Source: a virus
Lineage: Duplodnaviria; Heunggongvirae; Uroviricota; Caudoviricetes
IMG/VR virus record: IMGVR_UViG_2563366804_000001
Coordinates: 1 to 27,871 of that record
Length of the DNA: 27,871 nucleotides
Direction: 5' to 3' (one strand)
Positions 17,550 through 20,500 of this stretch are shown piece after piece; positions within the stretch are counted from its first letter, which is position 1; each line of letters opens with the position of its first letter. A program made the position numbers.

Positions 17550-20500
17550 AATTCCCGCTACCCGCTCCAGCAGAGGACGATGCTAGGCTGTTTCAGGCAC
17601 TGACACATTATATGTGTGGGATGTTTTACCCTAACTCCTTACCACATCCTGTTCTGTAATGAATATTATTTATTACGGTACCAGTGTTGTTTTTTTACAA
17701 TAGTGGAATGGTGCATTACTGGTGGAGATTTGTATTTCCTGGCAGGGCTGGTAATGTATCATTCCGGTGTTGTAAATAACACCCCAGAGACGTTCCTCAG
17801 TGCGAGGGTGGTTGAAAGAGTCGGTTTTGCGGGAAACCACAGCATCCATGCAGGACTGGATGTTTCGGGAGGCCCCGACGTCTCTGGTCATAATAAAATC
17901 ATAGTGTTCTCTTCATGCCATTTTATGCCATAGACCGCCACGCCAGGCGGTTTTTTTTATTCAGAATTCAGTATTTATGCGGCTCGCTACGGCGGGCCTT
18001 TTTCATATCCGCGCCACGCCCGGCGCATATCAAAAACCACAGAGCCTTTCAGGGGTGAGCTTACGGGATGGTCAGTGTGACTTTCTCTGTGGGCTGGTCA
18101 CCCCCGGGCGCAGGCCCACCCACTAAGAGGAAACGTCACTATGTTTGGTATTTTCAAAAAGAAAACCCGCAAGGCCATTACTGAAGTGAAGAAAATGGAG
18201 AACCGCGACGCGGTGGAGGCGACCGTCTGGGGTGCATATTCCATTGCATACGCTGACGGCACCTGTGACGCGAAAGAAATCGCGGTACTGGAAAAAAACC
18301 ATTGCAGCACTTCCTGTCTTTGCGCCGTTCTCCGGTGAGATTGCACAAATGAGTGCAAATATCCGCGCCCGTTATGAAGCGTCGCCGCGTTCTGCCAATG
18401 CCGAAGCTCTTCGTCAGCTGGCTGATGTTGCCGGTACTGATGATGCAGTTAATGTGCTGTGCCTGTGCCTGTGCCTGTGTCTGGATATCGCTGACCAGGA
18501 CGGTATCGGTCAGGAAGAAGAAGCGCAACTGAAGAAAATTGCGCAGGCGCTGCAGTTGCCGCTGGAGCAGTACCTGTGAAAAGTGCGCGCTTTGTGCTGG
18601 CTGTCATCCTGTTGTTTCTGGTAGTGGTGGTTGATTTCACCGGACGACTGATGTCGGTGCTGGCAGATGGTGTGCTGGTGGCGATGGCGCTGGTCGTGCT
18701 CCGGCCTTTACTGCGTAAATCTGAATAACATCACACAAAAGGCATCTGCGGATGCCTTTGACGGGGTGTTTTTTACGGGGCGCTGGTGGCCCTTTTTTAT
18801 TTTCAGGAGGAAGTATGTCTGAACCCTTATCCGGTTCCGGCACGGCTGCTGCGCTGGGTGGCGCGACGGTATTCGGGCTGTTTACCGGGATGGATTTCGG
18901 GATTGTGTTTGGCGCGTTCGCCGGGGCGTTATTTGTGGCAACGATGCCGCAGTCACTTTCAGTCTGGCGCGTGGTGGCACATTTTCTGGTGTCGTTTATT
19001 GTCGGCGTGCTGGGAGCGCGTGTGCTGTCAGCCTGGATTGCATCAAAAACAGGGTAACCGGGTTCGCGCCAGCGTTAAATTCACCTCTCATTCCGAACTG
19101 AATGTGTCCGCCTCATTTCTGGCAAAAGAAGGCGTCGAATTGTCCTTTCAGGGCAATATCACGGAGTTTTTACCCGCTATGACGGGAGCCGTGCAGTCGC
19201 CGCAGCCATACATGATTTTACAGGCGCGTGTTCATCTGCTGCGTAGCCAGGCGCTGGGAAAACAATTCAAGGCGCAATGGGAAAAGAACGCCACGATCGG
19301 CGACGCAAAAGTGTATAGCGACAGCACGGTGTTCGGTGACTTCGATATCTATAACACGGCGATCACCAACGTGCAGGATATGACCTTCGCCGGGGGCGAG
19401 CCGGGAGTGGCCATCACCATTACCGGTACGTATTACATCAACTCTGAAATGTGGGGTCTGGTATGAAAATCTCCCGAAATCTGAATCTGATTATTCCTGT
19501 CCGGACAGAAAAGGGTAACGGCTGGGTCCATGCCACGCCGATCAGCAAAGAGGTGTTTAAAGAGCATTTCTTCATTCTGAGTAAAACATTTTCTGCCATT
19601 TTCTCCGAAGGTCTTGGCGTCGTTGCGGGTCCGCGTATCGCTTTTTTGATGCTGGAGCGGATCTCGCGTGATTCTAATATCTGGGAAGGTGATAAAGGGG
19701 TCCGTAATACACTTGTTAATGAGGTCATTCGCCTGGCAAACCTTGTTTACCCAGTGGAGGGTAAAGGCTACGACACAATCCCTCTCGATATGGCGCTGGA
19801 GCGTGAAATCATTGATTTGGATGAAGTGGCGGGTGAGCTCATTTTTTTTACATGCGTCTCGTCGATAAATTCACCGGAGCAGGCGAAGGGGACTATGGAT
19901 GTGGTCAATGGAGTATGGAGCACTCAATGCTCGTTATTGAATCTTACGGAATGGATCGCTTCATTGCCGACATTGAAATCAGCCGCCAGTTCTGGCGCGA
20001 CGGCGAACACGTCATCAGCGACATCCTCGACTACTCAGCCGGAGCCGGATTCAGAGACATCTGTGCAGATTCCGGCCTAAATGTAAAAACAGCAGCTCAG
20101 TTTCGTGAGTTGCTCAAATTCAAAAATCCCGCAGGAGTATTGTGATGGCTGGTAACCAGATGCCAGTTCTGACGCTGGATGTTAATGAAGAACATCTCAG
20201 GCGGCTTGAGGCGATATTTGAAAAGTATCGCAACGGACTGATGATTGGCCCTGCCGGTACGCCGCTTAAAATACCTTCAAATACAGGGCCGGGAGGTGGC
20301 TCTTGGCAGACAACCACAGGCGGAGAAGCCAATCAGGCTCCCAGGAAACCATCTTCACCCGCGCCAGTTCTGGCTGCTTCCACTGATGGACGTTTAAGGG
20401 ATGAAAAATGGCGCTTTGTTGGCAGCGGGAAAACACCTGATTCGCTGGTGAGCAACTATAAAGGTCGCGGCGAAACGATGTTTGATAAGTACCTCAGCGG

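Follow-up and report, generated by a model that had tools for sequence, protein, structure and literature searches.

The DNA analysed here is IMG/VR virus record IMGVR_UViG_2563366804_000001, positions 1 to 27,871 (27,871 nucleotides, below called the window), a stretch assigned to the Caudoviricetes. Its tail region holds a gene, here named G, in which a run of thymines coincides with a change of open reading frame (ORF) ahead of a gene for a large tail protein. A first-pass annotation, made from the sequence alone, had proposed a programmed −1 frameshift in a tail chaperone gene at this point and had placed the slippery heptamer at 19842-19849. The site is present, but these coordinates describe a T8 run that is one base longer than the heptamer; the heptamer itself, T_TTT_TTT, occupies 19843-19849 and lies, as had been claimed, in the zero frame of the gene 19463..20080. 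The zero-frame codons around it read ...GAG CTC ATT TTT TTT ACA TGC.... The −1 frame was said to stay open to the start of the large tail gene, and it does so for 98 codons, up to a TGA at 20143-20145 that overlaps the ATG at 20145 of the downstream gene of 691 amino acids (aa). The zero frame continues for 76 codons past Phe129, in agreement with the earlier estimate of about 77. The frameshift product, GT, would consist of G residues 1-129 and the 98 codons of the −1 frame, 227 aa in all, with the predicted junction ...GELIFFYMR and the TAC at 19849 as first codon after the slip. Predicted tryptic peptides are EIIDLDEVAGELIFFYMR for the GT junction and EIIDLDEVAGELIFFTCVSSINSPEQAK for its counterpart in G. 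We attribute this arrangement, with good confidence, to programmed −1 frameshifting by the ribosome, as in lambda G/GT and P2 E/E+E', at a site between the tube and tape-measure-position genes of a Rac-SA53-type contractile-tail module.

Conservation of the site was examined in the DNA of 161 homologous loci, 158 of which were evaluable. They formed four sets: 71 IMG/VR loci of 66-100% identity, seven loci from species genomes (Sphingomonadaceae, Martelella, Rhodopila, Arsenophonus, Nitrospira, Raoultella and an unclassified Pseudomonadota metagenome-assembled genome), three isolated phages (Klebsiella Chronis, Pantoea PdC23 and Shewanella QDWS) and 80 further IMG/VR loci with a G+C content of 33-69%. 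The wider locus searches were seeded with a 12-sequence subset, since the 80-sequence alignment was too diverse to serve as seed. The heptamer was found at the homologous Phe-Phe pair in 155 of the 158 evaluable loci, always as T_TTT_TTT save for one T_TTT_TTC. These loci span 28-100% protein identity to the window product and a contig G+C of 33-69%, and their hosts or lineages comprise enterobacteria, alpha-proteobacteria, Nitrospira and Shewanella. By set, the heptamer was present in 69 of 71 loci (T_TTT_TTT or T_TTT_TTC, the remaining two having T9), 7/7, 3/3 and 77/80, respectively. Contigs of 64-69% G+C, too, have kept the heptamer together with an open −1 frame that terminates where the next long gene begins. 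An alignment with homologous loci had been suggested earlier as a check on the proposal; it places the heptamer at the same Phe-Phe and reveals a conserved −1-frame domain that extends to the next long gene. The proposed likeness to the G/GT arrangement upstream of tape-measure genes is thus supported by 155 of 158 loci, together with the synteny to phage Rac-SA53 described below.

After the site the zero frame runs for 53-77 codons in all 155 loci, with total length kept at 180-238 aa, and the close relatives of the window G all have 205 aa. The long zero-frame continuation, which had been taken as a possible sign of decay, is instead a conserved feature of the family. The −1 frame comprises 90-123 codons wherever it ends inside the contig; in one locus (L080) it reaches the contig end after 83 codons. 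The length of the T run varied among the diverse IMG/VR loci (seven T's in 29, eight in 48), whereas the phased heptamer was constant. Two loci carry T9, L021 at 3381-3389 and L073 at 3384-3392, and there the ORF is continuous over 227 aa. Two metagenomic relatives have the altered sites ATA TTT TTT (L117, 1888-1897) and TCT TTT ATT (L126, about 1885-1900); in both, U_UUU is still in phase and the T domain still intact in the −1 frame, and they could possibly serve as natural tests of single-tRNA slippage on U_UUU. A scan of 1.84 billion representatives returned 626 family members, mostly of 186-205 aa, which matched fusion residues 1-130 only. Continuous matches to the whole fusion amounted to a handful, each a singleton cluster on one or two metagenome contigs. 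Two leads from the protein comparisons were abandoned. A second frameshift position, hinted at by the '69% coverage' of many 205-aa matches, was traced by alignment to spurious BLAST extension, and lineages lacking the frameshift, hinted at by continuous 'fused' representatives in a 50% library, proved all to be singleton clusters.

Codon usage at the site was analysed in 75 non-redundant representatives. The two Phe codons were TTT in 149 of 150 cases, compared to 143 TTT and 173 TTC (45% TTT) elsewhere in the same genes. The codon before the heptamer ended in T in all 75 (GTT, GCT, TGT, ACT, ATT or TCT) while encoding Val, Ala, Cys, Thr, Ile or Ser; at fourfold-degenerate third positions elsewhere in these genes T makes up 20%. 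The base 3' of the heptamer was A in 73 of 75. Selection at the site thus acts on the nucleotides, beyond the Phe-Phe pair alone. Nucleotide variability follows the frames: upstream of the site entropy peaks at the zero-frame third position (0.8-1.1 versus 0.1-0.3), in the overlap it is damped to 0.13-0.57 at all three codon positions, and past the G stop the variability shifts to the third position of the −1 frame. Per-residue conservation showed roughly codons 151-185 to be conserved in both frames. Both continuations are also conserved as protein sequences among relatives with 30-50% identity, the C-terminal part of G among homologues of 32-50% identity. The zero-frame consensus past the site is FFT..S..K....LWG..TS...TEF..SLPTST, that of the T domain in the distant loci FFY...LYG..F.AD.DR.R.FWRDG...LDW...EGF...EFRQR.L.

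The −1 frame has no conserved start of its own. Within the interval from the upstream stop to 20 codons beyond the site, only 23 of the 75 representatives have a −1-frame ATG, and 29 of the 75 have neither ATG, GTG nor TTG there. In most representatives the T stop adjoins or overlaps, within a few bases, the start of the next long ORF. With no conserved start and a stop that abuts the next long ORF, expression of T requires a change of frame. In the window, stop and start signals overlap at both junctions, as ATGA at 19463-19466 from the tube gene to G and as TGATG at 20143-20147 where T meets the long gene, a layout suggestive of translational coupling from the tube gene through G/GT to the tape measure.

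Table 1. Features of the G/GT locus and of the adjoining tail genes in the window
Feature	Position	Strand	Remarks
Zero-frame gene G	19463..20080	+	ATG start, 205 aa; PHROG 11810 (E=4.7e-90); RefSeq WP_000703984.1, 'hypothetical protein'
G residues 1-129			Common to G and the frameshift product GT
G residues 130-170			G-only structured segment (predicted)
G residues 171-205			Ser/Thr-rich tail, predicted disordered
Slippery heptamer T_TTT_TTT	19843..19849	+	Codons ATT/TTT/TTT, Phe128-Phe129; next base A
TGA closing the −1 frame	19834..19836	+	−1 frame opens two codons before the heptamer; translation ...GG*AHFFYMRL...
−1-frame T segment	19849..20145	+	98 codons (YMRLVDK...NPAGVL) and TGA 20143-20145
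T ORF as called by gene callers	19852..20145	+	Separate 97-aa ORF from ATG 19852; PHROG 14324 (E=1.7e-61)
Two-frame overlap	19850..20077	+	Both frames open; 76 zero-frame codons after Phe129
Tape-measure-position protein	20145..22220	+	691 aa; C-terminal lytic transglycosylase (SLT) region; PHROG 7694 over full length
Tail-tube-position remnant	19038..19466	+	PHROG 6566; homology to Rac-SA53 rac51 from 19055, first 32 nt lost; stop overlaps G start
Truncated phiP27-type holin pseudogene	18815..19054	+	87% to phiP27 holin; PGAP (Prokaryotic Genome Annotation Pipeline): incomplete, C-terminus missing
Truncated rac54-like gene	22224..22691	+	PHROG 7750, positions 1-158 of 222

Runs of seven T's are by themselves not in excess: both strands of the window contain 15, compared to 17.3 +/- 5.8 in shuffled sequences. 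The G gene has two further zero-frame heptamers, at codons 17 and 61, followed by −1 ORFs of just 0 and 7 codons. The one at codon 61, T_TTT_TTG at 19644-19650, is missing from many relatives and provides a chance control for the conserved site. The heptamer alone is therefore unremarkable, and its significance comes from the frame architecture and the conservation.

In the proposed mechanism most ribosomes would stay in the zero frame and produce G. A minority, with both tRNA-Phe re-pairing to UUU/UUU within U_UUU_UUU, would slip back by one base, resume in the −1 frame at the codon TAC (19849) and produce GT. This product would combine the shared 129 residues, a flexible linker and a helical T domain, and would end one base into the tape-measure-like start codon. 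If the pair works as in lambda, the N-terminal part common to both products would cover the tape-measure protein, tube subunits would be recruited through the T domain and the slip rate would set the G:GT ratio. The ribosome as agent of the frame change, a low slip efficiency and the chaperone role in tail assembly are what we infer. Frameshifting of the G/GT type is widely conserved in long-tailed phages (PMC5009743). In E. coli, U_UU.Y ranks second among tetramers for shiftiness, H_HH.U_UU.Y belongs to the efficient heptamers and U_UU.U_UU.U slips at >0.1% without a stimulator, UUUUUUU being under-represented in E. coli genes (PMC4066793).

Several observations weigh against this interpretation. 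The downstream stimulatory structure that the first-pass annotation had recommended looking for did not emerge convincingly from four fold analyses covering up to 75 representatives: the single-sequence fold downstream of the window site was no better than that of shuffled sequences (z=+0.77), an alignment fold of 21 diverse sequences gave 0 consensus pairs, and the per-sequence fold z over the 75 representatives averaged −0.26, compared to −0.24 for an internal control. The enterobacterial subset alone yielded one weak helix of 5 bp and −2 kcal/mol with one compensatory change. An upstream Shine-Dalgarno-like element was seen in 8 of 75 representatives against a background of 5% and is not conserved. 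U_UUU_UUU is far less shifty in E. coli than A_AAA_AAG (PMC5009743), a low shiftiness that is at the same time consistent with the low-level slippage expected of a G:GT pair. Comparisons to known chaperones gave no significant link. Aligned with hhalign to P2 E+E', lambda GT and Mu gp41, a 37-sequence GT profile reached probabilities of 0.06-0.22% (P2 0.2%); no family passed E<=0.01 in Pfam or E<=0.1 in NCBIfam; and neither PDB nor BFVD contained a significant fold match, the labelling of 9 of the 50 best sub-threshold BFVD matches as tail assembly chaperone being a hint only. With no detectable tie to known chaperone families in sequence or fold, the term chaperone is thus taken from gene position and architecture alone. 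All annotated database records label the ORFs hypothetical, and the literature contained no experimental work that we could find on a fusion product of this family. Finally, the window lacks sheath, hub, spike, head and packaging genes and its tube gene is truncated.

Of the other explanations for the two frames, the decay of a once-continuous gene by a 1-nt indel was raised in the first-pass annotation. According to it, a single-base insertion in the homopolymer split a continuous 227-aa gene and the long zero-frame ORF is accidental. The window is indeed a degraded prophage with other pseudogenes, homopolymer runs mutate easily, and continuous versions of 226-233 aa exist in the databases (P0001-P0004, P0125, P0128, P0131 and P0133). 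Each of these versions is, however, a singleton cluster found on 1-6 contigs, and the position of the frame change differs among them, whereas the split form occurs on thousands of contigs and in 155 of 158 evaluable loci, including those of isolated viable phages. In addition, the zero-frame continuation is conserved as protein and is confidently modelled within the fold. We therefore reject this explanation, and the few continuous relatives (L021, L073 and P0001-P0004) are homopolymer length variants or sequencing errors. Two independent genes, the 97-aa ORF being translated from its own ATG at 19852 to 20145 with no recoding, would agree with the position of that ATG two codons past the slip point, with a GGTGAG 11 nt upstream of it and with the databases, which list separate proteins (P0127, P0124) and give the T ORF a PHROG of its own, 14324. 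This start is not conserved in the representatives, as described above. Moreover, two genes would leave unexplained both the strict TTT TTT with a preceding third-position T, against codon usage, and the fact that the −1 frame always opens just before the site in genomes of low and medium G+C. We consider it very improbable.

The T7/T8 run could also support slippage of the RNA polymerase, a further point against assigning the frame change to the ribosome. One U added to the transcript on the run would give an edited mRNA from which GT is translated normally, and the sequence data do not fully separate this mechanism from ribosomal slippage. The window and 48 of 78 diverse loci have eight T's, and one added T yields exactly the fused 227-aa ORF, as in L021 and L073 with T9. 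The invariant third-position T before the site lengthens the run besides completing the heptamer, and the avoidance of UUUUUUU in E. coli genes is thought to be partly due to slippage (PMC4066793). On the other hand, efficient bacterial cases were described for runs of 9 A or T (PMC5009743), compared to 8 in the window, and selection has not lengthened the run although preceding Val, Ile or Phe codons would have allowed it. The nearest characterised case in a myovirus, T_TTT_TTG of P2, has been annotated as translational. Just seven T's are found in 29 of 78 loci, six in one and four in another, with the in-phase U_UUU and the T frame kept, and ribosomal slippage is therefore favoured. Overall we regard transcriptional slippage as unlikely and the ribosome as the probable agent.

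Structures were predicted for both G and GT. The AlphaFold model of G (predicted local distance difference test score, pLDDT, 89.4; predicted template modelling score, pTM, 0.80) is ordered to about residue 170, with 171-205 disordered. A helix at 119-135 runs through the slip site, and the elements specific to G, helix 138-152, strand 155-157 and helix 161-167, have a pLDDT of about 95 and lie within the N-terminal fold. The GT model (pLDDT 76) was obtained from a shallower alignment of 16 sequences and is only moderately confident for the T domain; its N-terminal part is as in G and is followed by a disordered linker (137-148) and a helical T domain (148-221). As far as these models go, the unusual trait of the family is that the zero frame encodes a further conserved segment that is predicted to fold and that the slip point is inside the predicted fold. 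About 45 codons are accordingly constrained in two frames. It is an even chance, in our view, that the family represents a structurally new kind of chaperone, in which a slip in the middle of helix 119-135 would switch between two alternative structured C-termini, with purifying selection in two frames over ~45 codons, in phages of several proteobacterial classes and of Nitrospira. The alternatives would be a G-only folded segment with a disordered Ser/Thr tail, and a linker with a helical T domain. If this is true, G and GT would differ in conformation or oligomerisation of the shared domain, beyond an added module.

The window is 100% identical to a sequence of E. coli O27:H7 strain B4103-1, and over its whole length (1-27871; L168 coordinates are window + 45) it represents the Rac prophage of an enterotoxigenic-type E. 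coli. The Rac markers intR, xisR, ralR, recT, recE and kilR precede the tail module, ydaF and hokD are also in the window and ompN is beyond its right end. The window keeps part of a Rac-SA53-type tail module, which the Rac prophage of K-12 is without, and from 19055 on it matches the tail module of the inducible phage Rac-SA53 at 88-96% identity. In Rac-SA53 the sheath gene (PHROG 205, E=2e-54) is followed by a tube-position gene of 147 aa, the 205-aa G, an SLT protein of 657 aa and the hub (PHROG 196), and the same order is found in pPE4, Chronis, PdC23 and QDWS. G is thereby placed exactly where tail-assembly chaperone genes sit. The 691-aa protein has partial matches to tape-measure PHROG 2276 and to transglycosylase PHROGs, and its 657-aa orthologue in Rac-SA53 matches Pfam SLT at 1.2e-20. 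From position, size and the partial PHROG 2276 matches, the long SLT protein can be assigned as the putative tape measure.

Two deletions account for the losses in the window. At 19054/19055 the holin is joined to the 33rd nucleotide of the tube-position gene, with lysis, packaging, head and sheath genes lost, and at about 22690 a deletion of ~5 kb joins the truncated rac54 to a truncated baseplate-J gene, with hub, spike and part of baseplate J lost. In a defective prophage no selection for function can be claimed for the window copy; its frameshift site is probably an intact relic, vestigial rather than in use. Elsewhere in the window, the replication and late regions are separated by a convergent pair at 12813-14448, annotated 'sce7726 family protein' (+) and 'beta family protein' (−), which looks like accessory or possibly defence cargo. 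Two prophage tRNA genes (tRNA-Thr, tRNA-Gly) are annotated at 17410-17563, just upstream of the lysis region. A tellurite/colicin-resistance-like gene at 18135-18579 is a frameshifted pseudogene in RefSeq and has a T8 run nearby, at 17951-17958. Two of the phage records used here have conspicuous host labels. L002 (PP818812.1, 'Actinobacillus phage vB_Apl-pPE4') is ~90% identical in nucleotides to the E. coli Rac-SA53-type tail module over 25 kb compared, and to judge from this its host label, Actinobacillus pleuropneumoniae, may be wrong. OK094664.1 (L083, 'Shewanella phage vB_Sb_QDWS') and OP650936.1 ('Hujiaoplasma phage zrk29-1') both have 47,902 bp and identical tblastn scores, and could be one sequence submitted twice, with very different hosts named.

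In summary, the programmed frameshift site is real and deeply conserved; it belongs to a well-known kind and occurs in a family that is not annotated for it. In the phage records with the family the ORFs are hypothetical in eight of nine, the ninth having no annotation, and the frameshift is annotated in 0 of 9. The ORFs are likewise 'hypothetical protein' in the RefSeq E. coli genome of the window and in the 240 protein-database clusters listed, and in the annotated records the T part is overlooked or called as a separate gene. The published account of the proposed Felixviridae, phages of this family, does not mention a frameshift. PHROGs contains the window G and T ORFs as full-length members of 11810 and 14324, both of 'unknown function', treats these as two unrelated proteins and records neither a frameshift link nor a chaperone role. 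A family-wide rule, T_TTT_TTT at Phe-Phe about 130 residues in, would give the correct annotation of the chaperone pair, for the proposed Felixviridae gut phages as well as for the toxin-carrying Rac-SA53. The family is further a natural example of long and ancient two-frame coding. Its G and GT products, diverging inside a folded domain, could offer a way to test the structural basis of the G:GT switch, and a bare U_UUU_UUU with no detectable stimulator has been maintained across hosts of 33-69% G+C.

Compared to known tail-assembly frameshifts, the family shares several features with G/GT systems: a gene between the tube and tape-measure genes (in Rac-SA53, pPE4, Chronis, PdC23 and QDWS), a conserved zero-frame X_XXY_YYZ heptamer, and a second frame, without a start codon of its own, that codes for a conserved domain and stays open until the tape-measure gene begins or nearly so. 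In such systems the two products are made in a fixed ratio and are both required for tail assembly, with G binding the tape measure and T the tube protein. A classical but not strictly defining trait, a zero frame that ends soon after the slip, is absent, with 76 codons here. Lambda G/GT shares the common N-terminal part joined to a −1-frame T domain and the position directly upstream of the tape-measure gene H. In lambda, no downstream structure was found necessary, G and GT are not expected in virions and the slip efficiency sets the ratio (PMC5009743), and on all three counts the window pair would resemble it. Lambda differs as a siphovirus with the heptamer G_GGA_AAG, which uses tRNA-Lys, and with a G that stops 5 codons post-slip; lambda T exceeds the remainder of G by about 140 aa, whereas the two C-termini of the window are of similar size (76 versus 98 aa). 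The Mu gp41/FluMu-type chaperone resembles the window in its Mu-like contractile-tail and baseplate module and in its position between tube and tape-measure genes. The Mu frameshift is given as −2 in a report that cites Xu et al. 2004 for it (PMC2628397), unlike the −1 of the window, and gp41 has 144 aa compared to 205/227 aa for the window products. P2 E/E+E', like the window, belongs to a contractile tail with the order sheath, tube, chaperone, tape measure. It has a U-rich heptamer on Phe codons, T_TTT_TTG between FII and T, and a −1 extension whose end overlaps the tape-measure start. P2 differs from the window in the last base of the heptamer (G versus U), in its smaller products (91/142 aa versus 205/227 aa) and in E stopping 6 codons post-slip, whereas 76 zero-frame codons follow the slip in the window and 53-77 in the family, a stretch that is conserved.

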